In this document: one piece after another, positions 1 through 58,752 of the stretch | Layout: each line of letters opens with the position of its first letter | How positions within the stretch are numbered: position 1 is the first letter of the stretch | Assembly: GCA_046484585.1 (NCBI GenBank) | Contig: JAWOIQ010000210.1 | Location: forward strand, 12,238 to 76,237 | Origin: Desulfurivibrionaceae bacterium | GTDB taxonomy: Bacteria; Desulfobacterota; Desulfobulbia; Desulfobulbales; JAGXFP01 | DNA length: 64,000 bases | Direction: 5' to 3' | Position numbers and translations under genes: made by a program | The notes under the pieces: model-generated | Told to the model about the DNA's origin: nothing | What the model saw: only the letters and a program-made list of their open reading frames with translations | The model's database searches: none

Positions 1-3000
1 GTGGCCGATATTATGGATCCCTCAATGCCCATTGTAGCCAAACTCGATACCCTCGGGATTGCCAATAGATTGTTCCTGGAAGGTGGGACATTGTATGTGG
101 CCGATATGTCCGGCGATGGTTTTGTTTCGCAGCTCAATGTTATCGATGTCAGCGATCCCTATCAGCCTGTCCTGGAACGGACGGTTGAACTCAAACCGGC
201 CCGTAAGGACCTTGTGGCTGACGGGGTTTACGACGTGACTGTTGCAGGCGGCAAGGCTTACGCTACCGTCCATTATTCTGACCAGGAGGACAATCCTGCC
301 CAGGCCATTGTCGAAGTAATAGACCTTAACTCATTGGATGAGGCTTCCTGGGACAGCACTGTCCCAGCCGTTACGCATAGGCAGGCAGGGACGACTGATA
401 TCGGTGGACGCGGGCTGGTTGTCGCCCGTGGCGGACTGCAGGTGGCTGCTGCCAAGCAGGGCATTGTCCGGCTTGAACTTCCTGCGCTGTCTGTCTTGAG
501 TCATGCCCCGTATATGCAGGAGAACAATGTTTCCACATTGATGGATGCGATTACCGTTGAAATGTCCGGTGTTCTGCCGGCGGCGACAAATCTGGCTGAT
601 TATGTGGAGGTTTACGAACTCGATGCCGATCCGCGGTTCGGTCAGGCCGTAACCGACCTTTTTGATATTTCCTTTGGCGAACGCAACGGTGCGCCATCAT
701 ACCGGTTTATAGAGTTGCATCTTAAGGATGGCTCTGAGTTACTCGATAATACACAGTATTACGTCACTATCAAAGGCGGCCTAGCGCCAATGTCCGGTCT
801 GCCAATGCCGAGCGATTATACCTTCAGTTTCTACACGTCCGTCGCAGGCAGTGAGCCGGCTCCGGATATCTATAGTGTGGTTCCTGCTCATGGTTCCATT
901 GAGGGCAACACACCAATAGCCGTTTCCGGTGTTAATTTCGGAACGAACCCGACCCTTTATCTGGGAGGACAAAAGCTGGTTGTCGATGAGGTCATTCCTG
1001 CCGGCCAGTCAGGCGAGCCATTTGACCGGATCAAGGCCAGAACCGTTCCCAACTACGCTGGTCCTGCCGCCGTTCGCGTTGTTGCTGAAAGCGGTCTTGA
1101 CGATATCGTCATCGGCGCCTTTACCTATGTGGACATACTGCAGATTTCGTTTATCAACCCGGCCGTTGTCAGGGTGTCTCAGGCTGGTCAGGGTGATCGT
1201 GTTGAGGTGGTCGGATACGGGTTTAGCAATAGCGTTGTGATGCGCGCTTATCAGAGTGGCAAACCAGAAACAGCTGTGGAAATTCCTGTGGATGATGACA
1301 GACTGACACTCTACAGCGCGGAAAAAATGTTCTGGATTGTCCCGGACTTCGGTGAGTCATATCGAGGTTTTGTGGATGTTGATGTTCGTGATGGAGAGGG
1401 CAGAAGATACTATCTGCCCAACGCTCTCTTCTATGGCAAGCTGCAGGTTGACCGCCAGCTCGAGACCGATGTTTTTGATCCTGGAACAACTTTCATACCC
1501 GATCCATTGAAGTTGCCGCCCGGAAGTCTTGTCGATGTTGCCGTTGATACCGATATGGGCCTGATATATGTCCTTGGTCAGGGTGATGATAAGATGCGTG
1601 ACGGGCTAGGGGCGGCAAGTCAGGAAGAATTTCATCAAACCACTTCGCCGGGATGGCTCTCTCTGGTGCATTATGTGCGGGACGAGCTTGGTAATGCAGC
1701 GCCCATGCACGGTCTTGGCTACTACAATCTCTCCCAGGCGCTTGTCCCCCACGCAATGGTGCTAGCGAAAAAACATCTCTATGTTTCTGCCGGTGGTGCA
1801 CATGCAAATTATTTGACCGTTCCATATGAGGATAGGAACTGGATACTGGTATATGACCGGGAGGACAGGATGCCGGGCCAGGGCGGAATTGTGCAGCCCG
1901 AAGGGAAGGACCGGGACATACTCTACGCTCTCCCCCTCAATTTTGAACAGGCGCCTGTGGACCTTGCGGTCAAAGACAATTTGCTTTTTGCCGCAAGTCC
2001 CGTGGATGGTGTTGCCGTAATAAGTCTGGCGGAACCGACCAAACCGGCTGTCATCCGCGTCCTGCGCAAGGGTCGTGTTGACGGCCTTGAATATTCTTTG
2101 GATCCTGCCAAAATTGAAATAGTAGGTGAATTACTGCACGTTTCGGGAAGACATCGCTATGTCTTCGATATAGGCAAACCGTCAATGCCGCAGGTAGGGG
2201 AAAGCGGACTCGACAGCCTGGCAAGTCCCATGAAGGGACGGACAATGATTGCTCACAGCAACGGAAAGGCACTGGGATTTGGGTTGTTTGATGCCTCTGT
2301 TCCCCATCATATACGGCGGATTGGTCAATATCTGCCAAATGGGTTCTCCTTGCCGGGAACCACCCAAGAGGTTTTCAGCCAGGTAACTGTTGCGGGCAAC
2401 AGCAGTATCGCTGGATATTTTCCGCTTTTTGACACCAGCAGGCCGGATGAAATTTCTCTGCTTGATGCCGTCAAGCTGGACATGCATGAGGGGTTACGAA
2501 GTTCCCTGCTCACGGATGATGGTGTTCTTATCCTTGGCACTGAGAAGCATTTGAAGCTGATCGACACGATGATTCTCGATTTAGCCAAGTCGGAACCGGC
2601 TCATGGAGCTGCCGGGGTGCCGACGGATAGCTTGATTTCCTTGACTTTCAATCAGGAACTTGCCGTGCCGGAGAACATGATACTGGATGAGTTTATCCGT
2701 CCGTATCTAGACATGGTGCTTGTCGATGGCACGGAGACTGGGGCGCCTGTATCGTTTGATTTGCTGAATGACGATCAAAACCCGAGACGAATTTTGTTGG
2801 ATACCAATTCGCTTCTCGAACCAAATGCCGCCTACAAAATAATCATGACCGGTAAATTGGGGAGCCGAAGGACTCAGGGGCTGTTCGACCATGTGATTGA
2901 ATTCAAAACAGGTTTTGATGCTGCTCCGCTGCCGGAAATTGAGTCCGTTAAGCCATCTATAGTAGAAACCTCCGGGGCTGAGTTGACCGTGGTTGTGAAA

Positions 3001-6000
3001 AATGCGGTTGATCCTGTCTTCCTGATTGGCGGGAATGTAGCCCCGATTTCCGGTTTGATAGATCCTGAAGTTATGGGCGGAGGGTTGACTAAATATGTTA
3101 TTGAAGCGCCGGCCAATGTCGCTGGTCCGGCCGATCTTCTGGTAAACAACCAAAGCGGTGGTGCCGACAGTCTGTTTGGCGCTGTACAGTATGTCGAACC
3201 ACTGTCGCTTGTTTCGATAAATCCGGCGCAAGGGTCTGTCAATGGTGGAACAGAGACGATTATCAAGGGCCTGGGATTCCGCCCCGGCTTAGCCCGAGTA
3301 AAGGTCTATTTTGGTGGTATTCCGGTTTCTGAGCAAGATATCAAAGTTTTGGACGGTGAAACGCTTGAGGTCAAAACGCCGGCAGGAAGGCTTGGTCTTG
3401 CTGATGTCACGGTTACTCTTGATTCAGGCCAATCCGAAACTATGCCTGCAGCTTTTGAATATCAGCAACCGGCCCAAGCGAACATTGAAAGTCGCATGAT
3501 TTATGACGCGACTCTCGATCCTACCGGGGTTTTCCTTATTACGGCCGAAAGCGGTGGTGTCGGTATCTATAACGTTGATGCCTCAACTTTTACGGCAAAT
3601 GCCGAGCACCCTCTGAATCCCGATGATCTCCGGGAAAAAATAGATTTGAATGGCGACGGTAAGGATGATCGGTTGTTGTCTTTTGTCCCACTGGGTGAAA
3701 CAGCTTTGGGTGTTGACACCTATTTTGAACGTGGTGTGGACAGAGTGCTGGCAACGGGTGCCGGTGGCAATCTATATGTAATAGGTTTTGACTCGTTTGA
3801 TGTCGCCAATTCAACGATTATTTCAACTCTGCCGCTATTTTCCAGCCTGGCTCGCGGTATTGAGGCGGAGAACAACAGGGCGGTTATCGCCATGGGTGAT
3901 CGTGGTATCGGTCTGGTTGATATTTATCTGGCAACCAAGACGTACCTGACCAGTCATTTTACATTGCCGGACCAGCATTCGGCCCTTGATGTGACAAGAG
4001 TGGCGCGGCCTGCCGGACTTCCCGATTTGTACGCGGTAGTGTCCGGCAGTTTCTCGGTGAAGGAAAATAAACTTATTAACGAGAATGATCCCGGGAGCGG
4101 CGCCTTTTATTTGATCGAACAAAATGTGGGCCAAGGTTTCCAGGTTGTGGGCACGGTGAAAATCCCTGCCAGCCGCGTGGTTGTTGTTGGGGACAAGGCT
4201 TATCTCGCCGCCGGCAACAACGGTTTGGTTATTGTAGATATATCTGATCCCGGGAATCCGGTGATAATTTCCAGGGTTAACGATATAGGTTTTGTTTTTG
4301 ACGTGGATGTCAACGGTAATACCGCCTATCTTGCCCTTGGCGATAAAGGTCTGGCCACCGTTGATGTAACGGATCCTTATCTGCCTCAAGTCACCCAGGG
4401 CATGGAAGTTATGGCTGGGAATTCCATTCATACTGTTCTAGCCGATGATTATTCGGCTATTGCCGGTGGAGATTCCGCAATTCAGTTAACTGCTGACGTC
4501 GTGCTCAAGATTTTCAGCATCGACCCCCGGAATTACATTCTTGATTATGACGCTGAAGGCAAGTTGGTTGTCAGGCTTCGTTTCAATAAAGACATTGATC
4601 TCTGGCCTGAAAACCTGAATCATTTCCGGATACTCGGTCCTGATGATGATCCCGTGGCAACCGAAGTCGATATCATCAATAATGATGCCATCATAAACAT
4701 TCTGCCGGGTCATGGTCTGGCTGTCGGAGATAACTTGACCGTCCTTGCCAGGGCCGGAGTGAAAGTGATCAAGCCGCTGACGAATGACGTACATATTGAA
4801 CTGTATTCATTGCGGCAAGACCAGAAATTCCAGCTTATCTTCCGTGGCGGTAGACCGGATATTCTGAAACTTGATTCCGTTGTGCCGCGAAGAATTTCTG
4901 CCGGCAAAAGTAAAGAAATAAAGGTTTCCGGTCTGGGTATTCCTTTGGATCCAGCTCGGGTGAAGGTCTATGTGAGTAATATCGCAGCGGATATTCTCAA
5001 GATTGAGTCCAACGATGCTGAAGAACGGGCTGCCATTATTACGGCCAACGTCCCGCCTATAGAGGTGGCCGGACAGTTTGACGTTACCGTCCTGCTGGAG
5101 AAAGACGGAATATGGGAAAGCCTCACCCTTTATGGCGGCTTGATGGTTGATGAGCCGATCGAATTTGAGACTCTGACTCCAAGCTGGGGGCCATGGAATG
5201 GCGGCACCACCGTTTCGATATACGGTAAAGGATTCGAGCCCGGCAACACTGTCATGGAGGGGCTCAAGATACTGATTGGCGATGTGCCGGTCAGGGCCAT
5301 TCGGGTTTTCTCCTCGGAACACCTGCAAATTGTTTCGCCGGGCGGCAGAGTGGGTCGCAATGATGTACATGGCGAAGATCGCTACGGAAATCGAACTGCC
5401 CTGCTCGGTGATGACGGTTTCGGTTATGGTCTCAAGCGACTTGCCTCGCAAAGTGTTGGTTTCGCTCCCACGGATATTTTTGTCGATCAGGAAACAGGCG
5501 TAGCAATAACCAACGGCGGTTATTTTTTTGAAAACCGTTCTGAACAGTATTTCGAGGGTGTGCCGCTGCCCGATTCCATTCGTGCGGCAACATTCGATAT
5601 CCAGAATCCGACCCAGCCGTTACTTGTCGGGGGAGTTTCAACATTGCCGAGCGGTGATAAGGGCAGGGAGCAGATCAGTCGTTTTCTGGAATACCAGAGC
5701 CTGGCCGCGAAAATGCTTTTAGGTGAATTGGGGCTGTCTAATGAGGCCATGTCGCCTGAAGAGCAGGCCCGGCTGGGTCAACTCGATAACCATGTTCTTG
5801 CCACAGGCTATGATTCTATCAGGGTGAGACCGGTCAAAGAGTTTGAAGATGGCATACCGCGTAAACGACTTTATGTTGCAAGCGGCAGCGGCGGTGTTTC
5901 CCGTTTGAATCTGGATGAGCAGAACGGCCTTCAGGTTATCTCCCAGATTCTTGATGAGTCCGAAGGAATGCATGTCGGAGATATTAATAAGCAGGGCTAT

Positions 6001-9000
6001 GTCGCTTTTGCCGCACGGGCAGGGGTTGCACCAGACTGCGAGATTCCTGAAGAACCATGTAGTTATTGTACCGATGGGATTTTTGGGGGTCGGATTGAAC
6101 AGGCAAACTACATGGTCGAGGATGATCCTGTTTATATCGGTCCCCTCCAAGATGGATATGGCGATGGAATCAAAGGCGGTAATGTAGTTATAACCGACGG
6201 AGACTGGCTTTTTGCCGGCGGTCGGCAAAGTGGCCTACTATGGAACCCCTGCTCAGGCAGCCGGATGATAAGTGGGCGGCAGCCTGTCGATACCGCTCCC
6301 GGTGCGTCCACGGAAGAACCTCAAGGTGATACGGTTTATACAGTAAACCTTTATGATAATGTTCTTACCTATCAATACCAATTCGACAACAATGTTCGCG
6401 ATCTGGTTAGTTACGGTGATTATTTGATCGCCGCGCTTGGAAGTGACGGCATTGAGATATTCCCTAAAGAACGCCCCGAAGAAAGAGTGCGGGTTGAGTT
6501 TGACTCGAACCTTCAAAGTAATGCCGGCAGTGGCGTTCGGCTCCGGCAAATGGGTAATCTCATTTTTGCTTCCGCGGATGGCGGCGGACTTATCGTAATT
6601 GATATTGCCGAGCCGATGCAGCCCTATATTGTATCCGCCGGCAACAATGAGATCATGCAAGCCGCTGATTATTTCAAAGGCAGGCTGTTAACTGTCTCAA
6701 ACGGCTCAGGTCTTTCGGTTTTCGACTTACCGGGCTCCTTCGTCGTAGAAAGTTCGATCCCAGAGGGAGAATACATAGCGGATAATGAAGATTACATAGT
6801 TACCTTTAACGAATATGTCACCATCGCTTCCGTCACTGAACCCGGCAATGTAATTGTTACCCGAGTTGATACGGGTGAAACAATTCCTGTATCAATATCC
6901 GCTAACGAGCCCATTGAGGAATCTTCTTTAGAGTACGCGGTTTCTTTTTCTCGTGAAGAGGGTGTTGAATACGCGATACGAATTGAAGATGCCAGGAACT
7001 TGCGCAGCACCAATTTGTGGAGACCTTTTGTCGGGCATGTTGAGGCGGCTGCGGCCGGAAGTGTTCGGCCAGTTATTACGTCGGTTGAGGGCGGAATTTT
7101 TCATCAGGGAGATAATCAGGAAATTATTATAAGAGGCAGCGGTTTTGTCAATTCCGCGGAGATTAAGGTTTATGTAGACCACTATGAAATGACACCGGAA
7201 TGGATAGACGAAAATACTCTACGCCTACCCGCGGGAAGTGTCGAATTGCTCAATCTGCCGCTTGGACAGCATCACTTAAGAGTGATTGACGGAGAACTTG
7301 GAGCAAGATACGCCGGCGCGATAATTATTGGCGCCGAACTTGATCTGGTTGATTTTGCGATTACTCCCGAATCCGGTCCAATGGAGGGGGGATTGAATGT
7401 AAAGATTAGCGCCAGTAATTCGGCTATTTTGCCGGGGGCCAAGGTGATTCTCCGTTCGTTGCGAGGCCATGAGATAAGGACCCTGGAAATAGATGAAGGC
7501 GTTTTTGTTTCTGATCTTAAAGATGATGTTATTGATTTACAAACTTTCCGTTTCGTGCTGCCCGGGGTTGTTGCGCCCGATCTTTATGATGTTTTCCTGG
7601 AAATGGCGGGTAAAGAGATACATGCGGGACGGTTTTCTTATCTTATGCCGGCGGGCAGAGGGATTGATCTACCCAATTATCCTCCCATGGTAATCGGTGC
7701 TGCCGAAACCGTTGGCGATAAGCTTTTTGTAGGTGTCAAAGCCGGTCGAGACCCCAGTAAGGACAACCGATTCCTTATGAGAAGCGGAATCGAGATCTAT
7801 GATATCGCAATTTGGGATCGACCAATCCGGTTGTCCCAGGTGCGAACGGATCAACCTGTTACCGGTTTGGTCACATACGGCAACATCGCCTATCTTGCCG
7901 CTGGCAGTGATGGACTTGTTTTGGTTGATATAAGTGATATTGGGCGGCCTCATATTTTAGGTAATATGGGGATACCCGGCCACACTGCGACCGATGTTGA
8001 CTTGAATAGAAAAAAAGCTGTTTTGGCAATGTCGGTAGCAGATCCAATGGGTGGAGGCATTATCCGCTTTTATGATGTGAATGATCCTGAACTGGACCAG
8101 CCTCTCGGGTATTCAACTATTGTTTTTGCAGGCGATGAGTTATCCGGGCAGCCCGTGGATATCCAATGGTGGAATGATTCCCTGTATGTACTATTGAATC
8201 GGGAAGGTTCACTGCATCTCGTTGTTTTTGAAGATCCGACCGATGCAAACGTATATACGATTCAGGAGATAGAGCGCGGAGGGTTGTCCGGAGGTCTGAC
8301 GGATGCTTCTCTTGCCGTGCAAAACGGGCAAATAGCTATTGCCACCGGTGATGAATACCTTATTCTTCAGCCCAATGAGCTTGGGCAATACCAGACGGTA
8401 TATTGGCAATCAACCGGAGGAAGTGGCGCCAGCGAGCTTATTCCCAATCAGGGGGCAATTTTTATCGGAACCGGTCAGGGTCTGACGGATACCCCGACGC
8501 CTGATTTGGCTATAACGTCGATCGTGCCCGCATCCGGCAGCGTCATTACCTATGGCGAAACTATCCGCATCCAGCTGAATCAGCTGATAAACACCGATGA
8601 CGCGATATTGCAAAGCGCTATCAAGTTGTTTGACAGTGGCGGCGGGCTCCTCCCTGCTGAGAGTTTTGTTGTAACAGGCGCTAATACCTTGACAGGCGCG
8701 TATGTTGACATCTCTTTTAACGAAAATATTACCTATACCGGGGAGATTGAATTAAGAATTTCGACTGAACTGACCTCGTTAAACGGCCACCATCTGCTAT
8801 CATCTGCTGCAATTAAATATGAGTTGGTCTCTGGTGTGCGTCCTGAAATTGCATCCGTATATCGTTTGGCTGATGGTAAACCGATCGGTCATTATTTCCA
8901 TGGCGATGGCACTGAAACAGCCGAAATAGTTGGCGGCAACTTCGGTGCGGATATCGGGGCTCTTAAAATTATGATCGGGGACACGGTTGTACCCCAGACA

Positions 9001-12000
9001 AATATCATTGAACTTGCCGAAGGAAGAATCAAACTTAAAGTTCCAGAACTTTTAGTAAGCCTTGATACTGCTGCAATGGCTGTCAGCATCAGTCGCGACG
9101 GGGTCACCGCAATACTCAACGGTGGCGTTGTTGTTCAGCCGTTCGTGGTTCTTCAGGAAGTTGATCCGGATCGTGGCCCGCCTGAAGGTGGAAATACAGT
9201 CACCTTGTACGGCGTAGGGTTTAACAACGATGTTGTAGTCAAATTCGGCGGCGAGATAGCCGGCGATCTCCGGCTGTTGAACAGCAGCAAATTAACGGTG
9301 CGTGCTCCAGCCGGAAGTTTTGGATTTGCAAACGTGTCGATACAGAGCAAGCTTTTCCCGGACGAGGAAAGTGTTCTGGCCTCAAGTTATTTTTATGCCA
9401 ACAAAGCAACCGGTACGGTTGATCTTTCACAGGATAATCATAGTTCAAGCCCGGTAACAGGCATAATAGTTAAAGACCAGATCCTCTATGCAGTTACGGG
9501 AGGACATTACCAGCCCATGGATCGAGAGGGCAGGATGCTTGACAACCTTACCACTCCTCTAGCTCAACTCGTTCTGTCTGATATTTCCGATCCGGTTCAC
9601 CCGGAGCTTATCAAAAAAGAAATTGCCGGTTCGACATGGCCTTACCATTTCAATGGCACCTTGCCACCCGATGGATTTCGCGACATCGCTCTCGACGGAG
9701 AAAATCTCTTCTTGCTAGGCGGGGATCGATTATACCATTTCGATGTTACTCTTGCTGCTGATCCCATACAGCTAAACAATATACAGTTGCCTGATACCGC
9801 CAATCATCTGGCGGTTAAAGATGACATTATATATGTGTCAAGTTTGCATCGGGTCAGCATTTTCCGAGTCATGCCGGATAGGAATCTGATGGAGCTGGCA
9901 ACTCTGTCGGAGGACGAGTTGGGTGGTATGCCTGACGAACTGGTCCTCGTTGGTGACTCGTTGTGGATTTCCTTGCCGTCGGAAGCGAAGCTTATAACTG
10001 TTGAATTGATGAGCGGTCTTTATGAGATTACCAACGAAGTCAATCTTATCGACCGCGGAGAGCATAGAATAAAGCCGGCTTCCTTCCTTGTTCGAGACGA
10101 TCTCTTGCTCGTTTCTACCGGTGAGATGGGCACCGTCGTCGCTTATGCTGTCAGGGATAATAATGAGACTTATCCTGTTGGTCAATTGCAGCTCTCTTAT
10201 CTCATGTCAGCCGGAGACATCCATGCCGGTGGGATGATGTTGTATGGGCAGACATTGTATGTCGCTGCAGGGCAGGGGGATTTACAACTTTTTGACGTTG
10301 GCAGTTGGTTGGATAATAGTTTCCATGAAAATATCCGGCTAAAAAATTATTTCGCGGTCACAGGCGCTGTTGATGCCATTGCTTTTGGTCGAGGAGCCCT
10401 TTACGCGGGAACAGCCTATGTCTATGTCGAAGGGGAACCCGCCGAGAACCCCCTGGAAGTAGGAGTTAATCCTGGCCCGCTCGGTGGAGGGTTAAATACC
10501 ATAGCCAATACCCAGCTCACTGTTGTCGAGCAAGTTCCCGAACCACGAGGCTTTTTGTGGTCCGAACAAGCGGTTGAGATTCAGTTTAACAGGATCCTCG
10601 ATCCCGATCAGCTGTTTGAGTTCGGCGAAAGTCTTTTTACCGTATCCTTGATGGGAGAATTTGTAGAGGGCATAGTTTCGAGCCAGGTAAACAATATAGG
10701 GACGCGGCTCTTTTTTCGTCCTATCTTCCCGTTTGAACATGATAAGGAGTATCGCGTCAGGGTTTCCACGGTCCTGCAGGATCTCCATGGGCAATCACTG
10801 GACAGGGATTACAGTTTCCGTTTCGTAGCAAATGACTTTAAGCAACCGGTCATAAACGATCTGATCCCGGCCTACGGAAGTTGGCGGGGCGGAGAAGAAG
10901 TTGTTATTACAGGCGAAAATTTTGGTGAGGATTCGGTTATTGAGATCGGCGGTGTTTGGGTGCCGGATGAAAATATTTTGCGTTGGAATGAAACGGAGCT
11001 GGCATTTATCCTGCCCTCACTATCGGAAGAGTTACAAGAAAATCGTCTGGTCGGAATAGCCGTATCTAACAATTCCAGAAGGGCATTTGAAGCGGCCCGG
11101 TTTACCTATGTGGCGGATCCTGCCATTGAAGAAATAGGTCAATTCAATCCTTTGACCGGTAAACTGGCAAGTGGCGACCGCCGGTTGCTTTTCAACGCCG
11201 GAGAGTATATCGCTGTGCGGGGGGGCGGTTTAGGACCCTTGACCCAATTTTCCGCTAACGACAAACCCGTTCAAGAAGTTACAATTGTTGACTCGCGCAC
11301 CGTAAGCTTTCGGGCTCCTTTCGATACCCTTGGTAAGTTGACCATAGTGGCTACTAACCGCCCTGGAACTCCTGCTGGTCCTGATGTGGCTGTTAATAGC
11401 GACATGGAAATCGAGCTAGAATCGTTTCTTCAGCACAGGTCCGAAGTGGAAAACGGGAGTTTGTTGTATGACAGAACAGGTAGCTTGTTATTTGTCGGGG
11501 ATAACCAAAAAGCGCAGCTCTTTTCCACCCATGACGGTCTTTCCCCGTTATTGCTTTCGGAAATTCACCTTGGCGGTAAAATTAACAGCCTGGCCGTCTC
11601 CGAAAACTATCTGATCCTCTCGGTTGGAAGTTCCCAGGAACTTGCTGTTTATGAGATCACCAATGTTTATAGTCCAAAACTGATAAATACAATTGTCAAC
11701 CCCACCGGGGTTAAGCATTCTCGCCTCGACTTAGTCGGCAACATTTTCCTTTCAAGCGATAACAACACAATTAAAACAGGGTCGGTATATGGTGCTGACT
11801 GGCAGGAGTTGGATGAGTCTTTCAACGACTATGCCGTTGATGACCAATATCTCTATCTTCTGAAGGATTATACGGTTGAAGCAAGATCTCTTAACAGTTT
11901 GCAGACGGTTGCCGCCAGTTATACGCATAAGCTGACATTTGCCCAGCGGATAAAGGTGTCGCCACAGCGTATGGCGATTTGGGATTCGGAGCGATTGGAG

Positions 12001-21000: not shown

Positions 21001-24000
21001 GATCCCGAACGTCTTGAAGTCGGCGAAACATCAACCGTCGAGTTGATCTTGACCGACCGTTACGGCAACCTTGTCACGACCGTGTCTGATTCTTTTGGAG
21101 TTCGAAGTAATGCAAACTTCTTGATCGATGTTTCGTTGTCCGGAAACGCCCAGAGCGAAGGAAACAGCGGAACCGTTACCTTGGATATGCAGCGCGGCAT
21201 GGCCGAACTGCCGGTAACCGACGATACCGTCGAAGAGGTTGCGATTTCCGTGGCCGCTGTCGATCCTCTCCCGGAATCACTGAATGTCCAGGCGAGCATT
21301 AATCTTAACTTCCTGAAGATGCTGCCGGCAATCAGTCAAACCGAGTTCGCTTCGGTGACCGATAATATCAATCCGCCGCTGGTCCTTAATTTCACGGAAG
21401 CAGTGGAGGAGACCGGCAGTGCGCCTGTATCGGTCAAACTTGACGGGACGGTTGTCGACGGTTCCGTTGCGGTCGACGGTGCCACGGTTTCCTTTACCGC
21501 TGCAAACAATATCGCCTTAAATAGCTGCTACACTGTCGATACGACGGGATCCACCCTGGTTGGGGTGGCGGCGGAAGATAAGCCGCTGGTGCAGAATCTT
21601 ACAGTCTGCAGCCCTCTGGTTGCAATACCGCAACAGGGACAGCCCTATCTTTTGGCCGGAACCGAAAAGGCAATCGATCTCCTTTTCGGAGATGGAGTCG
21701 ATCGGCAACAGATCACTTCGGGCGAAGCTAATCTCGATGGCGTAACCTATCCCTTTGCCTGGGAGACCGGTGCCTTCACGACTCCGGACTTCTCCGGCAG
21801 TGTTGAAGACGGGACGCTTGCTTCCCTGACCCTTGCGGGGGACTATTCAGGCGCTTCGCTTCGGGTGGCAAATTCCATTACCATCCGTATCCTGCTTTCC
21901 GGTCATGATTTTGACGGCGACGGTCTCTTAAATGAATTGGAGATCAACCTCGGTCTTGATCCGACTAAAATGGATAGCGACGGCGATGGTATTGTCGACG
22001 GCGATGAGGACCAGGATGGCGACGGCCTGACCAATGTCGAGGAATTGGCCCTGGGTACCGCTTTGGATAACAGCGATTCGGATGGCGACGGCCTCTCCGA
22101 TTATGAGGAGGTCAAGCAATACCAGACCGATCCTTTGGCAGTTGATAGTGACAATGATGGTGTTGATGACGGTCTCGAGGTAAAGACCAACAATGATCCC
22201 AATAATGCAGGTGGGGATGTCGATCTCGCAGCCTGGGTAACCGGCGTTACTGTAGCCCCGGAAACGATCGAGGTGGCCTACTCACGAGTAAGTCCGCCCG
22301 TTGTCAATCTCCAGGTCACTGCCGACCTGACTGTGGACGGCGCAACCTATCAGATCGACGTAACCGAAGAGCGTTTCGGTACAACCTACAGCAGTGGTGA
22401 TAGTGCTATTGTTCAACCTTTGACGGATGGAGCTTTCCAGGTTGTAAGTGATGGTGAAACGACTATTTCTGCGTCCTTGGCCGGTTTTGCTGCAAGTTCT
22501 CCTCTAAGCGTCTTACCGTCTCACGAAGAGGATATACCTGTCAGACTTGCTCCGACTAGTACACCGCAAAAACTCTACGCTTCTTCCGATACTGGCGGGG
22601 TGTGGCTTGAAGTGACAAATGCTGTGCCGTTTATCATCAAAAAAATCGCCGTGGATGGGATAAATATTCCCATAGTTAAGCAGGACGGAATTTTGGCTGA
22701 TTACAGTGAGCTGCCTGTCTCGACCGATCCGGCATTGCCGGGTGTCGTGGCTCGGTTGCTAAGTCCCGCAAGCAGTTCGGAACTGGTGTCCGGGGATTTT
22801 CAGGGAAGTTATGAAGCATACTTGCCGGCGGATTTCAGTCTGGGGGCTGAAATAACAGTTGCAGAAATAAATGAAGCTGTGGATCTTCCCGCCTTGCTCT
22901 TAGTTTCATTTACCCAGGGTGTTCCGGCAGATATTCAGGGCATTATAAGTGTGACAATGGATACTCTGGGGACTTATGAAAATACAGTTGTGGAAGTCCT
23001 GGTTCCGGTTGAACCGGATCCGCAAACTGTTGCCATTGTTGATCCGGCTATACCTGAAAGCCTCGATATGCAAGTTGGTGAGGCACTCGATATTCCACTC
23101 GTAGTTCAGGATCCTGGATTCAATAATGTTGAAGTTCAGTATTTGCTCGATGGGGAACCCTTGCAGCAGAAGGTTGTTCCACCCTATCCAGCCATTGGGT
23201 TGGGAGTGGAGAGAAAGGTGAATCCTAACGTTGTTGAGACATTCTATGATCCAAATCCCGCCACTGTCTTTAATAGTGAAACTTTAATCCCTGAATATAA
23301 CAGCGGTCTCAATTTTAATAACTGGGGAGCCCTTGTTGAATGGTCCTTCCTGAGGTTTGAGATCGAGGAAGCCGGTTATTACAAGATTGGTTTCAACAAT
23401 TCTCAGGTAGCGGTAAAAGTCTACGGGGTTATCGCATCGGGAGAGTTCGATTGGGGCCAGGTTCTATTAAATGAGACTTATGGCTATTCCCATTCTCTTT
23501 TTCTGCCCGCCGGTAATTATGTAATTGCGGTTGCCCCCCGTTTTTCAACCTATGATTACCAGCATTGGCCCCCGAACAATTTCCCTGAGCCTTTTATAGC
23601 ATGGGGCGGTGTAATGGGTACCATGGGGGATCAGTCGATAACGATCCTAATCGATGCCGACCCTGCCGGCGGCACTTCGGGTGGCGAAGCTTCCAGCAAT
23701 ATAGACCCTGTCCGGTTGGAACAGGCCCAGAAAATCTTTAAACGCTATCTGCCCAGGCGTAAGGTCGATTTGAATCTTTCTTATCAGGAAATAAACCGGG
23801 TTTATATCTTACGTGATCGGGATATAGGTAGTCATACCTTAACCGTTAAAGTCCTTGAACATACCTTTGATGGCGTGCGGGAGTCGATAGCAAGAGACTA
23901 TAACCTTAATGTGACCGAAGCTGCTTCCGCCCCTGCTTGCAGCTCCATTTCAGTGGAAACCGTAAAGCCGCAAGAGGGTGAGGTTCTGTATGTCCGGAAT

Positions 24001-27000
24001 TCCGATAACCTTGCCACGGGCGATTTTACCAATTTCACCCCGGTAACGATTAAGGCCAGTTCTCCTTCGGGTATTGCATCCGTTGAGTGGAGCAATGCCC
24101 CGATCACCTATAATTTGCAGTTGCCAGAGACCTTTCCGGTTGGTTTGCCGATGCTCGAACTCGGTGAATATATCACAGCGTCAGATGATCAATACAAAAT
24201 TGATAAATCGATTGGAGGCGGTTCTGAGGTAAGAGCTGAATTTAAGAAGCCATTCGGCCTTCATGTCGATAGGCAAGGTACTTATCGGTTTACGGTTGAC
24301 CACCAGAACAGCGATGTGACCAGCAAATTGATAATTTATAGTATAGCCGGCTGGACAAATGAAGTAGCGATGGTTGAAGGGGGCAACGTCTACGAAATAG
24401 ATATAGCCGCAGGCGATTACTATCTATACGTCGCAACCGAATATGCGGGAGATGGATCATCATCGCTGGGTATCTCTAACAGGCTTCCCGTATATCAATC
24501 ATTCGAGGCCGCAGTCGAAAGGGATTATAGTGATTATGCAAATTTTAAGATCATGTTGGAAGAAGTTTCGGTCTCTCCAGAGCAGTATTATCTGGAAGGA
24601 AGAAGTTCACACTTGGGATATAGATTAGATACAGTAGATAATGCCTATTTTACCTTGGCCAATCCTGCCGCTTATCTCGCGATTCAGCGCACCGGCCTGA
24701 CGGAACTGGAATTTACCGTCACCAGTAATTGCGGAGCGGTCAGCACCCATGTTGTTCCCATCGAGATCGTTCCTGATCCCGCACCGCAAATCTCCATTCA
24801 GAACAGTAGTAGTTTTGAGAGGATGGCTCTTGGCGAGACGAAGACTTTGCAAGTTCTTATCGAGGATGCCGGGCGGGATGTGTCGAATATCGGCGCTTTC
24901 CTCTTGCCGAGAGATTGGGCTCCTGAGAACGAAAATTATGTGGGGCAGGAGATTCAGCAGGCGGGTATGCTTTTGTCCGGTTATGCTCTGGCCGATTTTG
25001 ATATGGCACAATCCCTCGCCAAACCATGGTCACAGGAGCAAGATTCATTCAGCTTCCGGCTGCCGACCTATACCCCACCTGATGTCGCTTTTGGTGAGTA
25101 TGATCTTCGTATTCTTGTAAGGGAGGAGAATGGAGATGTCTACTTATCTGAACCGCTTAAGACCAAGATAGGTCCCAGCAGTATGCCGCCGCACTTGTTT
25201 GTGGAGTCTTTGCCGGCGCATGTTCCTGCCGGTGAGGCTATTCCCGTTTCGTTCAATGCTTCAAAATTGGGCAGCATAAATAATGTAACGGTAACTGCTA
25301 CCGGCTCTGTGCCAGGGGGATTTTTCATTGAACAGATCTTTGGTGACGACGGTTATTCTCTTGAAGGTAAGATCCTGGTCCCTGTAGCTGAATATGCAAT
25401 TGAGGGGGACAGTGTCAATATTACAGTAACCGCAGAAGACAGTAATGGAGTTAAGACATCCGCCGATTTTACAGTAACGGTTGGCTTCTGGGGGCAGGAA
25501 ACTCTTGTGATCGACATCGATACCACGGCTGATAATTCTTTCAGCTTCAATAATGTTGTAGTCAGAAACGGAACCGTTCTAACCATCCTGGATCCAAGCA
25601 TTAAATTGAACAGTATCGACATTGAGAGTGGTAGTGAAGTAGTGATTCCTGGGACGACCACTCATGAACAGTCAATTGCGCCAAACTTTCCTTTTAATTT
25701 GCGTGGAACAGGCAAAGTGTATAGTTACTATTATAGAAGTTACTCTTGGAGTACCCCAACGTATAGTTATACCACGGTTCCTAGTGGATATTTCACAATT
25801 CCGGAGACAGGGGAATATACAATCGAATTTACCAGTTACTTTGATGCGGAAATCTATCTTTACCGTGATGATGGCTCTCTCGATAGTTCTGATCTTATTC
25901 TTCATAATGATAATGCTTCCGGATCTCTGTTTCAGATAGAAATCGAACTGACTGCTGGAAACTATTTTCTTGCCGTAGGAGCATCTCAGGTCACGCTCAG
26001 TGAGATTATAAGCGGCAAAAGCTATAGTCCGGGACTGGAGGGCGGTAATTTCACATATGCCGTTTTTTCGGCAAGCACTTCGGCAAGCACTTCGGATTTT
26101 CCTTACGACACATCCACCTTTGAGCTTAAAGATCATTTGCGGATCGATCAAGGGGCAATATTGACCGTTGAACCACCTCCGGCCTCATTCAATCGGAATG
26201 GAATGGATGCCGATGGTGGCGTTCATGGCGGTGATTCCGATAATTTTGAAGCTTATGGTGATTTCCGCAAGCCCCGGTTTCCCGGCGGATCGTCCGGGGT
26301 AAGAGAATATTTTGGCAGCACCAGTTGGAATTCGTGGCCTGGAGCTGCAGGCGGAGGTTCCTTGCATATTGCAGTACCTGTTCTGAATTTGAACGGAACA
26401 ATTGCCGCCGATGGCCGGAGTTTGAGCGCTGATGATACGTTCAGCTTTAACAATGGTGTCAGCTACCTTGGCGGAGGTGCCGGCGGCAGCATCCAGGTTG
26501 AGGCCAGTGTTATTGACGGCAGCGGCACAATTCGGGCAAACGGCGGTGATGTGTACAACTACTATCAAAGATCAGGGGCTGGGGGGCGTGTTGCAGTTTA
26601 CTACGATACATATGATGGCGGTTCGATTTATGAAGGATTGACCCTTGAAGCAAAGGCCGGTACAGCGATGGCAGCACATTATCGAAATGGTGCGGGAACA
26701 GTCTTTACGAAGCATGTGGCTCAACAGTATGGCGAGTTGCATATCGACAATGGCATGGATGCGGTCGGCAGTGGCACTACTACTCTGCGGTCGATTGGCA
26801 AGCACATCATAGCAGATGTCCGTCCTACTGCGGTGGGAAACAGATACCGGATATCTATTGATGATCCAAACGGGTTTTGGGAAGAATACGAACCTGTCTT
26901 CTGGCAGCTTGGCGCCCGGGGGCTTTTCGTCAGTCTTGACGCCGAAAATATCGATGCGCCGTTGTATGAAGTCATCGATAACGGCCGGGATTATCTTGTA

Positions 27001-30000
27001 GTCGAATCTACTGAAGATTTGACCGGTGTGGTCGGTAATACAATGCAGGGCGTAATTCGCCTTGACAAATTGGTAACAACGGAAGGAGTTCGGCTCAAGA
27101 CCCTGGATCGTATCCATGCCGATACTTATCAGATTTCTGATTACGCCAATGTGAGGGGGGTCGCGGACCTTGACACGACCGAGTGGATAAATCTTAATGA
27201 TTTCTCCTTGGCAGACGATTCGGTCCTCTATACCCAAAATATAGAAGCATCAAGTATGACCCTCACCAACGGTTCATTGTACTCAATAGGTGAGATTGTT
27301 GTCTCCGGTGATGTGAATGTGACCGGGGTCGGGGGCAACAAGTTGATGGCAAAGAAGCTGACCGTTGATGGTGATGTGGATATTGTGGACGCTTCTCTGG
27401 AATTAGGGATTGACGAGAAGTTCTCTGTGCAAGGCAATATGTCTATTCGCGGAGAAGCTGCCGATGGCTCTATTGTCACTGTTCCGGAAGCTGATATCAG
27501 CAGTAAATTTATTTATACGCTGGATTTGAATGTTGCCGGGCAGCTCAACATAACTGCTTATTCTAAGATTGACCTTAATGGCAAAGGCTATCCCGGAAGA
27601 TATAAGGTCGGTTTTATCCCTTACTATGACGAAATTGCCGACCACCATATTGGTGATTTTACTGAGGTTAGTTTTGCCGGAGCGGGAAGCGGAAAAGAAA
27701 GCGGAGCAAGTTATGCCGGCGGCGGTTTGTTGCGGGTCAAGGCTGGAGATATGACGGTCGATGGTGTGGTTCAAGCCAATGGGGTGGGATATAGATATTC
27801 AGCAGCCGGCGGCGGTATCCATTTGGATGTCTCTTCACTGAGTGGTACAGGTCAGATTATGGCTAATGGCGGTTTGGCTAGTCATTATCTGGATAACTCT
27901 TCTGGTCCCGGCGGGAGCATTAGCGTCGTTTATGATAATATTTCCTTTAATCAGACCAACTTTCAAGCCCATAGTGGAGTAATCTATAATAGTACAACAC
28001 GTAACCACGTTAGGGGGGCGGCTGGAACGGTTTATTTAAAAGAGAGAATGGCAGAAGGCGGTCATCTCATTGTGGATGGTGACGTTGGTAATGGAATTCT
28101 CTCACCCTCGTTTAATACGGAACTTAGAAGTGTCGGTCAGCATCAAATTACCGAACTTCTGAGTCGTGGTAACGGAATCTGGCGGATTAATCTGGCGGAA
28201 AATCTACCGTTGACTGCTAACAGTAGTGATGGTCTAGGTTTAATTGGTCTTGTTGTCGATCTGAATGCTGCCGATTATGAAGGTCCATTTTATACGATTA
28301 CCAATAACGGAGATGATTGGCTGGAAATCGATACAGGAGGAACTTCCTTATCTGCCGGTTTTGTTGGACAGGAGCTAATCGGCGTTACCAACTTAAGTGG
28401 ATTGACTCTTAAAAATGGCGCTAAACTCAAAACGCTGGATCGCTTAGTCATTTCCGATTTGAGCAAAGTTGAGGTTGATGGGAATACTGAGTTAGTCTTT
28501 GGTCAAATGGAAGGCTTGGAAGATGTGAGCTGGCCGCAAAACTATAAACTTATTGTCTTAGGAGACCAACAGGTCTCCTCGTTAGTAATTACAGATATGT
28601 CGTTGACTGTAGCTGGACAGCTTAGTGTTACGGAAGATTTTGAAATTTTTGGGACAAATTCGAATTTCAGTGCAGATGAAGTTGTCGTCGGAGGCAGCTT
28701 CAACATTGACGGTTCAACCGCAACCGTTAACGATAGCCTCGATGTCGCAGGTAATTTGACGGTTGCAACAGATTCGATGCTTAACACGGATAAGATCGCT
28801 GTTGCCGGTAATTTCCTTATTGATAGTGCAACTGTGGTTTCCTCTGATATCAGAGTAACCGGTGAATCCGGCTATTTGAAGGTGCTTGGTTCCGGTAAAC
28901 TTACAGTTCCCGATCCTGAGGATGATAAAATCTATCCTCTCAATTTAGAAGTTACGGGAGAGTTGTATATCGATGCTAATGCCGCCATTGACCTTGATGG
29001 TAAAGGCTATCCTGAAGGTCATACAGTAGATTTCATTTCTAATACTAACACAGGCCAAGGAGGTAGTTATATAGGTCACGGTGGAGGGTATTCACAATCA
29101 GCTAGTGATTTAACTTATGGAGACTTCGCTGAGGCAAGTTTTGCCGGATCTGGGAATACGTATAGTTCTTCTAGTGTTATAAAATCTGGTGGTGGCTTGG
29201 TGCGAATTAAAACCAAAGAAATGGCCGTCTTTGGAGTGATTACAGCAAATGGTTTGAGTGATTATACATCCACAGGGGCAGGTGGCGGCATTCATTTAGA
29301 GGTTTCCTCTCTGTCAGGCAATGGAATGATAACAGCTAATGGCGGATATCCTAAATATGGTTGGTATAAATCCGAGGTGAAAACGGGATCTGGTGGGATT
29401 ATCAGTGTCGTTTACGATAATATCTCTTTCGATCAGGCAAATATTCAAGCATATGGTGGAGGTTACACGAATTCAAATGATCCCCAGGCAGTTGGCGGGG
29501 CCGGTACCGTTTATTTAAAAGAAAGGGTGACGGATGGCGGCCATCTTGTTGTTGACGGCGGCTACGGGTTAAATACTGAGCAATGGACTGAATTGAGAAG
29601 TATAGGCCAGCATAAGATTAGTGGCTTGACAGACCTCGGGGATGGAACTTGGCGGATTGATTTGGCGGATGACGGACAGCTGCCGCTTGCCAATAGAATC
29701 GACGGTCTTGGCATGCGGGGCCTTGTTGTCGATCTGGATGCTGCCGATTACGAGGGGCCGTTCTATACGATCACCGATAGCGGCGATGATTGGCTGGTTA
29801 TCGATACTGCCGGCGGGTCTTTACCTGATACCATTATTGGTAACGACCTGATCGGAGTTATCAATCTAAGCGGATTGACCCTTGCAAACAGCGCTCGTCT
29901 CAAGACTTCGGATCGTTTGGTAATACCAGATCCCGGGAAAGTGGAGATTTCTGAAGGTACCAAGCTGGTATTCGGACAGATGCCTGGCTGGGATAAAGTT

Positions 30001-33000
30001 CTTTGGCCTCAGAATTATGAACTTAATCTTACGGCTGATCAACATGTCGCTTTCTTGTCACTCATAGATGTCGCATTGAATATTGACGGTCAGCTTGTTG
30101 TCGCAGGTGATTTAGAGGCGGTAGGGATAGGTGCGAATATCAGTGCGGATGGGATAAATGTTGGCGGCAGTTGCTTTATCGATGGTGCGACCATGAACGT
30201 TAATGGTTCTCTTAACGTTGTCGACGAACTTGCCTTGGCTGGTGCCGGTAGCATTCTTCGTGCCGATGAGATCGCTGTCGGCGGTAGCTTCCTTGTAGAC
30301 GATGCGACAATTATTACCTCTGATATCAAGGTAACCGGCTACTTTGGTTCCCTGAAAGTGATGGGTGCAGGTAAGATTACGGTCCCTGATCCGGAAGAAG
30401 ACATTGTTTATCCGCTTCTTCTGGATGTAGCAGGGGAGGTTTATGTCGGGCCGGATGCCAGCATAGATCTTGACGGCAAGGGATATCCCGGAAGGCGTAC
30501 GGTTAATTTTATCTCTACATATGGTAGTGCCGGCGGCAGTCATAGTGGCCCAGGAGGATATTATACTTACTATTCATCTAGCTCCTTGGATAGCGACTCA
30601 AATTACGGTGATTTCACCGAGGCCCGCTTTGCCGGAGCTGGAAGCCAAAATTACAGTGGAGCCGCTGGCGGTGGTTTGGTACGGATTAAGGCTGGTTATC
30701 TGACTCTCGATGGTGTGATTCAAGCCAATGGAGCACCATTTTACTATTCAGCAGCCGGTGGTGGTATCCATCTGGATGTCGGCTCTCTGACTGGTCTTGG
30801 TCAGATTATGGCTAATGGTGGTGTCAACTCGGCTTATTCTGGTTCTGGCGGAATCGTTAGTGTTGTTTACGACAATATTTCCTTTGATCAGACTGCCATT
30901 CAAGCCTATAGCGGTACTCGCAACTCTTATTTAAATGTTTTTTCCCGACAAGGGGCGTCCGGCACTGTTTATTTGAAGGAGAGGAATGTGGAAGGCGGCC
31001 ATCTTGTTGTTGATGGTGGTCTTGGTGGTGACACAGATAATTGGACGGAGTTGAGGAGTGTCGGTCAGCATCAAATCAGCGGACTTACAGATCTCGGTGA
31101 CGGGACCTGGCGGGTTGGCCTAGCCTTGGAAAGTCTGCCGCCGACTGTCAATAGGATTGACAATCTTGGCTTGCGGGGCCTTGTTGTTGATTTAAACGCT
31201 GCCGATGACGAAGGTCCATTCTACACCATCACCGATAGTGGCGATAATTGGCTGGTAATTGATACCGACGGCACGTTATTGCCCGATAGCCTCATTGGTA
31301 ATAATCTGATCGGGGTTACCCATTTAAGCGGATTGACTCTTAAGAATGGCGCTCAACTCAAAACACTGGATCGTTTGGTGATTTCCGATCCGAATAAAGT
31401 GGAGATTGCTGAGTATACAAAACTAACCGTCGGGCAAATGGTGGGCTGGGAAGAAATGACCTGGCCTCAGAACTATGAAATTAATCTGACCGGTGACCAA
31501 GAGGTTTCCTCTCTGGCAATTACTGATACGTCGGTGACCATTAACGGTCGGCTTGATGTTATCGGCGACTTTGCCGCGGGAGCAAATACTGTGATCAGCG
31601 CAAATGAGATCGTTGTTGGCGGTAATTGCCTTATTGATGGTGCGACCGTTATTACTACTGATATCAAGTTAACCGGGGAGCTTGGAAACCTGGAAGTAAT
31701 AGGCACAGGTAAAATTACAGTCCCCGATCCTGAAGAAACTATACTGTATCCGCTTAATTTGGAGGTCGGCGGAGAGTTGTATGTTGGACCGGATGCCAGC
31801 ATAGATCTTAATGGCAAAGGGTATCCGAAGGGGAAAACAGTTGGTTTTCAGTCTCATTCTACTGCTGGCAGTCATGGGGGGATTGGTAGTTATGGTTCAG
31901 ATGGTCGAACTTATGGAAATTATGAGGATGCCGGATTTGCGGGTGCTGGAGGGTATAATTATTCCAATTCACACAATTATAACGGCGGTGGGTTAGTTCG
32001 GATCAAGGCTGGAGACCTGACTGTCGATGGTGCAATCCAGGCTAACGGGGCTTATCTGAATTATTACAGTTCAGGAGCTGGCGGTGGTATCCATCTGGAT
32101 ATCGGGTCTCTCTCGGGAGTTGGTCAGATTCTGGCCAATGGTGGTACTGCAAGAGGCTCCACTGGTTCTGGTGGGCGTATAAGCATAGTCTATGATGAGC
32201 TGGTGTTTGATTTAACAAATATCCAGGCAACAGGTGGTAGACGAACCTACTACGACCCCGGTGATATTCGGGGCCAGGGTGCAGCCGGGACGGTTTATCT
32301 CAAGGAGCGACGCGCAGACACCGGGCATCTGGTTGTTGATAACGGCACCGCAGGGCAAACAGATCAGTGGACTCCTCTTCGGAGTATCGGTCAACAGGAA
32401 ATTATCGCGATTGAACAGCTTGTCGATGGCACCTGGCGGATTGAGGTTGACGGTACTCCTTGGCTATCAGTCCATGATTCCCTTGATCAACTCGGATTAA
32501 TCGGCTTGAGCGTCGATTTGGATTCTTCTGATGAAATAGGTCCATTTTATCCGGTTATTGATAACGGTGATAACTGGTTGTTGATCGAAACGGCAGGTGA
32601 TGTATTAACAGGTCTTGTTGGTAATGATTTGATCGGGGTCACCGAGCTTTCGGCTTTATCTGTAAACAACGGTGCGCGCCTGAAGACTTCTGACCGTCTG
32701 GTAATCAGCAATCTTGACAATCTGAATCTTGATGGCGCTTCCGGAATTGGTTTTGGACAATTTCAGGGATTGGAGACTTACCCCTGGCCCAGGGGCATAT
32801 CATTTATCATAGATGCGGATCAGCAAGTCCAGTCTTTAAATATTGTAGATGGTTCAAATATCGTTTTTAACCGTTCCTTAACGGTAGCTGGTAATTTGAC
32901 GGTGAGCGGTACGGCCTCATTAACTGCCAGTCCTCTTATTGTAGCAGGCAATATGATAGTGAGCGGTACAACCGACCTAACTGCCACATCTGTCACTGTG

Positions 33001-43030: not shown

Positions 43031-43039
43031 AATTTGACA

Positions 43040-58738: not shown

Positions 58739-58752
58739 TCTATAACTGAGAT

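Follow-up and report, generated by a model that had tools for sequence, protein, structure and literature searches.

A 36-kb open reading frame from a Desulfurivibrionaceae bacterium is the 3' part of a conserved giant gene whose product is probably a Sec-exported extracellular fibre

In this study we analyzed a stretch of 64,000 nucleotides from a Desulfurivibrionaceae bacterium, a relative of the sulfate reducers (contig JAWOIQ010000210.1 of assembly GCA_046484585.1, positions 12,238 to 76,237 of the forward strand), which we call the window, and in particular the very long open reading frame (ORF) with which it begins. Our analysis showed that bases 1-35907 of the window make up about the last 78%, at the 3' end, of a single real gene. 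The protein that it encodes is a very acidic, Cys-poor, all-beta, multidomain protein and a member of a conserved family of 14,000-15,000 residues. Comparison of the sequences suggests, as the best explanation overall and with a probability of about 0.7, that this giant protein is a Sec-exported extracellular fibre or adhesin-like protein that has its own dedicated foldases.

Results

The open reading frame and its integrity

In frame 1 of the plus strand, bases 1-35904 contain 11,968 codons without a stop, and the stop codon TAA follows at 35905-35907. In the other five frames, no open stretch within this DNA is longer than 349 codons (minus strand, 18910-19956). Given the base composition of the window, the probability of a stop is about 0.0475 per random codon, and 11,968 stop-free codons would arise by chance with a probability of about e^-580. 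The part of the protein encoded in the window has a mass of 1,284 kDa and an isoelectric point of 4.4; it is very acidic and poor in Cys.

The alignment with the homologues of three loci (L001, L002 and L004) begins at window residue 1, and these homologues run on unbroken for approximately 3,330-3,370 residues upstream. In a local profile map, window residue 1 falls within an LVIVD repeat. Because the homologues continue upstream and residue 1 lies inside a repeat, translation does not start at the GTG of base 1. The first-pass annotation of this DNA had described a single uninterrupted ORF that starts upstream of the window, with 11,968 residues as a lower bound for the protein. The open frame, the collinear homologues over its whole length and their further extension upstream bear out both statements, and the existence of complete family members agrees with them. 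The annotation had also called bacterial proteins above 10,000 residues rare; they are indeed uncommon, yet documented in several phyla (bioRxiv 10.1101/2023.11.21.568195).

Collinear relatives exist for all parts of the ORF. Residues 1-3792 were matched by L001 in a single high-scoring segment pair (HSP) at 50% identity and by L002 at 41%, and residues 1-3740 were matched by L004 at 50-62%. Residues 2991-6060 were matched in one HSP by P0162 (EKD36914.1, an aquifer sequence of 2012; 47.6%), residues 5455-7504 by P0072, and residues 6578-10814 together with the C-terminus by L005/P0013 at 76%. These collinear homologues are 27-76% identical overall and come from independent assemblies, and the C-terminal residue is the identical end point in many homologues.

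An ORF of this length might be an assembly artefact, produced by a chimeric join or by the expansion or collapse of repeats, or might consist of several genes fused by sequencing errors. The source is a metagenome-assembled contig, and the number of repeat units near the C-terminus varies among relatives: the window protein has 7 beta-helix-A segments and its relatives have 4-6, with two units fewer in L005. In addition, one homologue, that of L004, is broken by three frame changes. Nevertheless, we reject this explanation as very improbable. Along the ORF, every part included, the sequence is collinear in order and content with that of at least five independent assemblies, four other assemblies give intact genes for proteins of 14,022-14,930 residues, and fusion through errors would not erase every stop over 36 kb. 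Furthermore, repeated DNA inside the ORF is only 60-83% identical and at most 300 nt long, and no long-period tandem array was detected in the DNA of the ORF; the repeats are thus too diverged to have misled the assembler. Judging from the sequences, the differences in copy number look like real evolutionary variation.

The broken homologue deserves a remark of its own. In L004 (ENA ERZ25039549 contig_68966, 10001-23450), the giant gene is split into many called genes, and its frame changes at least three times (near 13.3, 18.67 and 19.5 kb of the locus). These breaks are either an indel artefact of error-prone long-read sequencing or the sign of a decaying copy, that is, a pseudogene, and they belong to that sample and not to the window.

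The N-terminus in homologues and the expected full length

Complete members of the family have 14,930 residues (L014), 14,640 (L015/L016), 14,161 (L020) and 14,022 (L019, GCA_018814345.1), and the L017 protein, at a contig edge, has at least 13,619. The contigs of L015/L016 carry a peptidyl-prolyl isomerase (PPIase) named for the Olavius Delta-1 symbiont. In L004 the giant gene starts 3,374 residues upstream of the equivalent of window residue 1, downstream of a divergent glyoxalase gene, and the 10-kb flanks of L001 and L002 stop just within the same N-terminus.

The N-termini of L001, L002 and L004 each consist of a charged n-region, a hydrophobic core of 12-16 residues and an AxA-type site. 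The predicted cleavage sites are SAAA/G, SRA/E and AHA/Q (the slash marks the cut), 3,330-3,374 residues upstream of window residue 1. In a Pfam scan, the N-terminal 3,332 residues of a homologue contained mainly Big_7 arrays, DUF4625 and similar domains. By comparison with these relatives, the complete window protein is predicted to have about 15,300 residues, with about 3,340 codons (about 10 kb), including a Sec signal peptide, lying upstream of the window. This predicted length is compatible with the 19 kb of the contig that lie beyond the window.

Architecture of the window protein

The part of the protein that was read can be divided into three zones, all encoded on the plus strand. Zone 1 (residues 1-3800; bases 1-11400), delimited with Pfam, self-BLAST and the local profile map, consists of LVIVD beta-propellers alternating with TIG and Big_5 immunoglobulin (Ig)-like domains. 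The Pfam scores were 190 bits for TIG (6 stretches), 81 bits for LVIVD and 80 bits for Big_5, and the local profile map showed 10 TIG and 8 LVIVD stretches. The super-repeat formed by these domains is loose, and its copies are not near-identical in self-BLAST. It is this zone that L001 covers in one HSP at 50% identity.

Zone 2 (residues 3801-8744; bases 11401-26232) is the non-repetitive centre, recognized from Pfam, from coverage and from the collinear P0162, P0072 and L005. It contains a TIG domain (residues 4313-4377), a Big_5 domain (4393-4481) and a Big_7 domain (4720-4779), a weak beta-propeller signal at about residues 5834-6150, and a Big_1-like signal below the Pfam cut-off at 6755-6835. 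Approximately five calcium-binding repeats of the TSP3 type (DxDxDG...) lie at residues 7303-7395 (bases 21907-22185), as seen with Pfam TSP3_bac (55-59 bits) and a motif scan. A jelly roll resembling PPC and PA14 domains is found at residues 8583-8680 (bases 25747-26040), on the basis of its similarity to residues 11744-11843 and of weak Pfam matches to PA14/GLEYA, and a sister jelly roll is found at residues 7773-7855 (bases 23317-23565), whose fold was assigned with AlphaFold2 (AF2) and Foldseek. Pfam scans of 400-residue tiles of this zone at E<=1 gave only weak propeller, PA14 and Big_7 hints. The assignable share is only 14% in zone 2, and about 40% of the whole window protein can be assigned to any domain type.

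Zone 3 (residues 8745-11968) is composed of six full copies and one truncated copy of a Gly-rich unit of about 435-500 residues, typically about 450. Self-similarity and AF2 models define the six full tandem units (bases 26233-34647), each of which is built from a beta-helix A, a small beta-barrel and a beta-helix B. The units start at nt 26233, 27637, 29098, 30607, 31909 and 33340 and are 33-62% identical to one another. The AF2 model of the unit, in which the barrel stands between the two helices, had a predicted local distance difference test score (pLDDT) of 78 and a predicted TM-score of 0.74. A Foldseek search of the PDB with this model gave low-TM matches to beta-helices (GH110, IgA1 protease, Hbp, Ag43 and tailspikes) and to small barrels; as far as the model goes, these matches show a generic right-handed beta-solenoid, without a family assignment. 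No Pfam or NCBIfam model matches the unit. In contrast, its own profile matched 6,011 cluster representatives (1,158 of them below 1e-30), most of which are multi-copy proteins of 1,000-7,600 residues. The unit is a candidate for the definition of a new domain family.

The truncated terminal unit (bases 34648-35904; AF2 and Foldseek) consists of a beta-helix A, an inserted jelly roll, a small beta-barrel and a C-terminal tail. The AF2 model of the last 409 residues, made from a 12-sequence alignment, had a pLDDT of 82. The inserted jelly roll, of the PPC or collagen-binding type, occupies residues 11744-11843 (nt 35230-35529). Foldseek matched it with probability 1.0 to the collagen-binding domains of ColG/ColH and to the PPC domain of B. 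anthracis (1nqj, 3jqw, 5sv5), and the superpositions had TMt values of 0.57-0.69 and root-mean-square deviations of 3.4-3.9 A. The Pfam PPC model was silent on the window protein, so that membership of the PPC group holds at the level of the fold only; only weak PA14/GLEYA matches were obtained.

The C-terminal tail of the giant protein ends in ...SEIIAGEGSELPVQQ. Its last 25 or so residues (bases 35830-35904) are conserved across homologues at 30-76% identity, with the pattern NSxWDxxSEIxAxxxSxLPxQQ, and many homologues end after LP or LPxQQ. From its conservation, this tail could be a signal for sorting, for processing or for recognition by a foldase.

Searches for other functions in the 11,968 residues gave negative results. 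Pfam and NCBIfam scans revealed no enzyme family, and motif scans for HExxH, HxxEH, GDSL, P-loop, RGD and LPXTG gave either no match or no more matches than chance would give. Nor did a scan of the composition reveal any clearly helical stretch, which would have been a sign of an alpha/beta enzyme domain. There was no LPXTG anchor and no hydrophobic segment fit for a membrane helix. RTX nonapeptides (GGxGxDxUx) had no match, and Pfam and NCBIfam contained no RTX family hit. The last 468 residues had no Pfam match, and the AF2 model of the last 409 showed no autotransporter barrel. A PDB sequence search with the whole window protein in three pieces found no relatives. NCBIfam gave nothing for the last 4,368 residues and elsewhere only matches to CglD and MtsD; these were below threshold and driven by the TSP3 repeats, and membership of these families was set aside.

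On the domain content, the first-pass annotation was largely accurate. The TIG, LVIVD, Big_5 and TSP3 modules that it named were all recovered with Pfam, as was Big_7, Big_1 was recovered only below the cut-off, and the beta-helix-like modules appeared in the AF2 models. Its PPC assignment stands for the fold and fails for the Pfam model. The statement that the content is entirely of the extracellular type applies to every recognizable module, that is, to only about 40% of the residues. That no enzymatic domain or anchor is visible agrees with our domain, motif and helix scans, in which about 60% of the residues remained without a family.

Two lipoprotein isomerase genes follow the giant gene

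The next gene, PPI1 (bases 36023-36838, plus strand), starts 115 nt past the stop of the giant gene with its own ribosome-binding site, GAGGGGG. It encodes a lipoprotein of 271 residues with the lipobox LLGGC and a parvulin-type PPIase domain (Pfam Rotamase_3, 103 bits; PrsA/SurA-like in NCBIfam). PPI1 is 100% identical to MFO7607495.1, which is annotated in a Desulfurivibrionaceae metagenome-assembled genome on a contig of 83,012 bp, and a lipobox-like motif was present in 102 of the 120 PPI1 homologues. It is followed by PPI2 (bases 37049-37894, plus strand), which encodes a lipoprotein of 281 residues with the lipobox ILPGC and a divergent parvulin domain (Pfam Rotamase_2, 31.6 bits). Both proteins have the combination of lipobox signal peptide and parvulin domain that characterizes PrsA-like foldases. 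We found no convincing terminator between the stop of the giant gene and PPI1, and the giant gene and the two PPIase genes are probably co-transcribed.

PPI2 is paired with PPI1 in the homologous giant loci. The order of giant gene, PPI1, PPI2, Ig protein and toxin was found, whole or in part according to the reach of each contig, in L005, L006, L009, L013/14, L015/16, L017, L019 and L020. In these syntenic loci the identity of the PPIases is 58-78% and that of the C-terminal region of the giant protein 30-45%, except for L005 (76%, residues 6578-10814). The five genes of this module are co-oriented and separated by short gaps. Our literature searches found no description of the giant family or of the pairing of a giant protein with parvulins.

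Members of the giant family occur in Desulfobacterota, including the lineage of the Olavius Delta-1 symbiont, in Gammaproteobacteria and in a metagenome-assembled genome labelled Myxococcota. L001 (CAYVFC010000028.1, labelled 'Sandaracinaceae') is 59% and P0010 (labelled 'Candidatus Peribacteraceae') 85% identical to the first 1,000 residues of the window protein; such distant labels reflect either mis-binning or transfer between phyla. In the window, the GC fraction is 0.45-0.53 across the giant gene and at the 3' end of the toxin gene, as against 0.565-0.589 in the last 6 kb (58001-64000). Horizontal spread of the module is suggested by this contrast and by the occurrence of the family in contigs labelled as three phyla.

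Other genes of the module and its surroundings

The fourth gene (bases 38106-42896, plus strand) encodes a protein of 1,596 residues with a Sec signal peptide, and its domains in Pfam are Ig_3/I-set, dockerin type I, EF-hand, Glucodextran_B, Big_7 and a CarboxypepD_reg-like domain. Homologues stand at the same position in L005, L017 (63%), L019 (46%), L015, L020 and L014.

The fifth gene of the module (bases 43583-51856, plus strand) encodes a protein of 2,757 residues with a Sec signal, an N-terminal region of about 880 residues, an RHS/YD shell, an Rhs core and a Tle1-like phospholipase domain, as assigned with Pfam and NCBIfam. The scores were 95 bits for RHS_repeat, 85 bits for the Tle1-like domain and 88.6 bits for Rhs_assc_core (residues 2403-2481). 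Homologues lie at 18617-20834 in L015, 16857-20807 in L019 and 16651-20816 in L020. The N-terminal region of about 880 residues is conserved among the loci at 38-50% identity and has no Pfam, NCBIfam or PDB match, and the payload differs from locus to locus (RHS with Tle1, RHS, DUF900 or Abhydrolase_6). We regard the protein as a polymorphic toxin, because its first 880 or so residues are constant while the payload changes.

Between these two genes lies a gene for a small four-helix-bundle protein of the 23S_rRNA_IVP family (bases 43034-43441, plus strand; Pfam, 125 bits), and a gene of this family is kept between the Ig/dockerin and toxin genes in L005 (20306-20707) and L017 (17237-17479) as well. 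After the RHS gene there are orphan pieces: a Tle1-like C-terminal fragment at 52423-52785, and an ORF of 435 residues at 53593-54900 whose C-terminal 100 or so residues match the start of the Tle1-like domain. Taken together, the region 52423-54900 looks like an array of displaced toxins. Two small ORFs with signal-like N-termini (51894-52292 and 52751-53128) are possible immunity genes.

The remaining genes are apparently unrelated to the module. They are a gene for a Sir2-family protein (55216-55926, plus strand) and, on the minus strand (59068-60600, 61083-61658, 61582-62316 and 62313-63881), genes for a ComM/YifB-like Mg-chelatase AAA protein, a PilZ-domain protein and the GspB-GspA pair, which are accessory proteins of type II secretion.

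Discussion

The above results suggest how the giant protein may be exported and what it may do. From the signal peptides of the homologues, we consider that the chain of about 15,300 residues would be threaded through SecYEG and not through a type 1 system, and that its missing N-terminal part would begin with a Sec signal peptide, to be cleaved off, and continue with Ig arrays of the Big_7 type. The passage of such a chain out of SecYEG would last many minutes. It is established that lipoprotein parvulins of the PrsA type fold Sec substrates once these have been translocated (PMC12826049, PMC10986000), and by this analogy, together with the conserved synteny, PPI1 and PPI2 may be membrane-tethered foldases or holdases dedicated to the giant protein after its translocation. 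Judging from the types of domain, the stalk of propellers and Ig-like folds and the calcium-binding TSP3 repeats would give reach and rigidity, and the distal beta-helix units and PPC-type jelly rolls may bind a ligand on a surface. Since the Ig/dockerin protein and the polymorphic RHS/lipase toxin are constant neighbours, the gene context suggests that the module mediates contact with other cells and possibly an attack on them. The first-pass annotation had left the export route open; the Sec-type signal peptides of the homologues and the two conserved parvulin lipoproteins now answer this question in part.

Several observations weigh against this picture of a Sec-exported extracellular fibre with dedicated foldases. 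For the signal peptide and the full length we had to extrapolate from homologues that are 41-62% identical, the 5' end of the gene itself being outside the window. About 60% of the residues match no family, and the central zone may conceal a module with an enzymatic or anchoring role. No outer-membrane translocator is encoded among the genes downstream of the giant gene in the window; the genes for GspA/GspB, which are on the opposite strand at a distance of 26 kb (61.6-63.9 kb), possibly have nothing to do with the giant protein, and their presence shows only that the genome has secretin-assembly factors. The link with the isomerases also has exceptions: in L008 the PPI1 homologue (55% identity) is preceded by another gene than the giant one, and L018, with a homologue at 60%, has no PPI2 downstream, its upstream neighbour being cut off by the end of the contig. 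Finally, the taxon labels Sandaracinaceae and Peribacteraceae may stem from mis-binning.

Three other explanations of the protein have to be weighed against these data. The size, the acidity, the low Cys content, the Ig arrays, the calcium-binding repeats and the beta-helix segments would all be alike in a type 1-secreted RTX giant adhesin of the LapA/MpIBP/SiiE type or in a type 5 protein (TpsA/CdiA or an autotransporter). In the sequences read, however, the window protein and its homologues lack the features that define the RTX adhesin, TpsA and autotransporter classes, and these classes were rejected. There are no RTX nonapeptides, the N-termini of the homologues carry a Sec signal and not a retention module, Pfam found no two-partner secretion (TPS) domain (Haemagg_act) in their N-terminal 3,330 residues, and no 12-stranded autotransporter barrel closes the C-terminus. 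Moreover, no ATP-binding cassette, membrane fusion or TolC protein and no TpsB is encoded in the 28 kb downstream or directly upstream in L004, and no TpsB was found in the homologous loci read. This explanation is largely refuted, and we give it next to no credence. A structural protein of the cell envelope, a scaffold or spacer that stays within the periplasm or at the inside of the outer membrane, would agree with an export signal that is, by inference, of the Sec type only, with the lack of a gene for an outer-membrane exporter in the neighbourhood, and with putative foldases that are lipoproteins and would act in the periplasm. We think this improbable. A chain of more than 100 domains would, judging from the sizes of such domains, be far longer than the periplasm if extended; beta-helices, TIG, LVIVD and TSP3 modules and modules of the PPC/collagen-binding type are typically found in proteins exposed at the surface; and the neighbouring toxin and dockerin protein point outwards.

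The neighbouring toxin also permits the idea of an undescribed contact-dependent toxin system in which the giant protein serves as the arm for tethering or delivery. That is, the fibre would bind the target cell and present to it, or pass on, the Sec-exported RHS/lipase toxin, whose N-terminal region of about 880 residues would dock to the giant protein, perhaps through the Ig/dockerin protein. A constant region with a changing payload is a hallmark of polymorphic toxins in which the constant part has a trafficking role; the co-orientation of the five genes with short gaps, the orphan Tle1 fragments at 52423-54900 and the dockerin of the fourth gene are in line with this idea. On the other hand, Pfam scans of the giant protein found no cohesin or other docking site, the part of L014/L013 that was read contains a larger Ig/adhesin gene and lacks a toxin, RHS loci often adjoin adhesin genes without a functional link, and no immunity gene was identified with confidence. 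We therefore regard delivery of the toxin by the giant protein as possible but rather unlikely. The same tentative standing applies to the wider speculation, drawn from the sequences, that the five-gene module may be an undescribed apparatus of diderm bacteria for cell contact or toxin delivery, with its own outer-membrane route for a Sec substrate of 1.6 MDa, that would have spread between phyla and into animal symbionts (the Olavius Delta-1 lineage).

The Sec-exported fibre that we prefer can be compared with several known systems. West-Roberts et al. catalogued large (at least 10,000 residues) and giant bacterial proteins from metagenomes (bioRxiv 10.1101/2023.11.21.568195), and the window protein, a single predicted protein of more than 10,000 residues, falls within their definition. 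Like those giants, it is encoded by a single ORF of more than 30 kb in an uncultivated bacterium; they are mostly predicted to be extracellular, are rich in beta structure including beta-helices and are easily fragmented in assemblies. The giants of Omnitrophota reach sizes of more than 30,000 residues and have membrane helices and SecA-like and enzymatic (cell-wall-degrading) domains (bioRxiv 10.1101/2023.11.21.568195), whereas the present family, of about 15,000 residues and found in Desulfobacterota and Gammaproteobacteria, has no detectable enzyme domain and stands in a fixed five-gene module.

In its presumed working, the protein is most like the RTX giant adhesins (MpIBP of Marinomonas primoryensis, 1.5 MDa, LapA and SiiE; PMC4083281, PMC8092209), with which it shares the megadalton size, the acidity, the low Cys content, an Ig-like extender, a presumed calcium dependence and putative ligand modules of the lectin/PA14 type near the C-terminus. 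In contrast to them, the family has no RTX repeats, no type 1 secretion genes were seen, and its homologues have a Sec signal. The extender of the RTX adhesins consists of about 100 near-identical repeats, whereas the domain order of the present family is non-repetitive and conserved between phyla. The type 5b exoproteins FhaB and CdiA come to mind for their long segments of beta-helical fibre and their link with polymorphic toxins and with contact between cells; here, however, the TPS domain and TpsB are absent, the beta-helix units are interrupted by small barrels, and the toxin is a separate RHS protein and not the C-terminus of the fibre. PPI1 and PPI2 resemble PrsA of Gram-positive bacteria (PMC12826049, PMC10986000) in being lipoproteins whose parvulin domain has helical regions on either side and which are placed for Sec substrates, and differ from it in belonging to a diderm, in being paired and in being genetically dedicated to one giant putative substrate. 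Giant1-5 of the symbiont Apilactobacillus kunkeei (PMC12863079) are likewise very large, Sec-dependent surface proteins encoded in a conserved gene cluster, but they have 3,000-8,000 residues, a monoderm host and unrelated domain content.

Giant surface proteins of bacteria as such are already known, and the new elements here are the conserved five-gene context and the widespread repeat unit that lacks a model. The analysis exposes a module of about 450 residues, formed by beta-helix and barrel, for which Pfam and NCBIfam lack a model although its profile matches more than 6,000 cluster representatives, and it also exposes a conserved toxin N-domain outside the known families. Published metaproteomes exist for the Olavius Delta-1 symbiont, and expression of the member associated with Delta-1 can thus be checked without new experiments. 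The finding would be of high importance only if the giant protein does deliver the toxin or if a new outer-membrane route exists. It does pose a mechanistic puzzle, that is, how a 1.6-MDa chain with a predicted Sec signal, without type 1 or type 5 features and with two private, putative foldases that are periplasmic lipoproteins, would be folded and placed on or outside a diderm envelope. For the family itself, the finding means that a gene for a protein of this size, about 15,000 residues, can be a stable orthologue in which the order of domains is kept at 27-76% identity across three phylum labels, and that this giant family is not a lineage-specific run of identical repeats.

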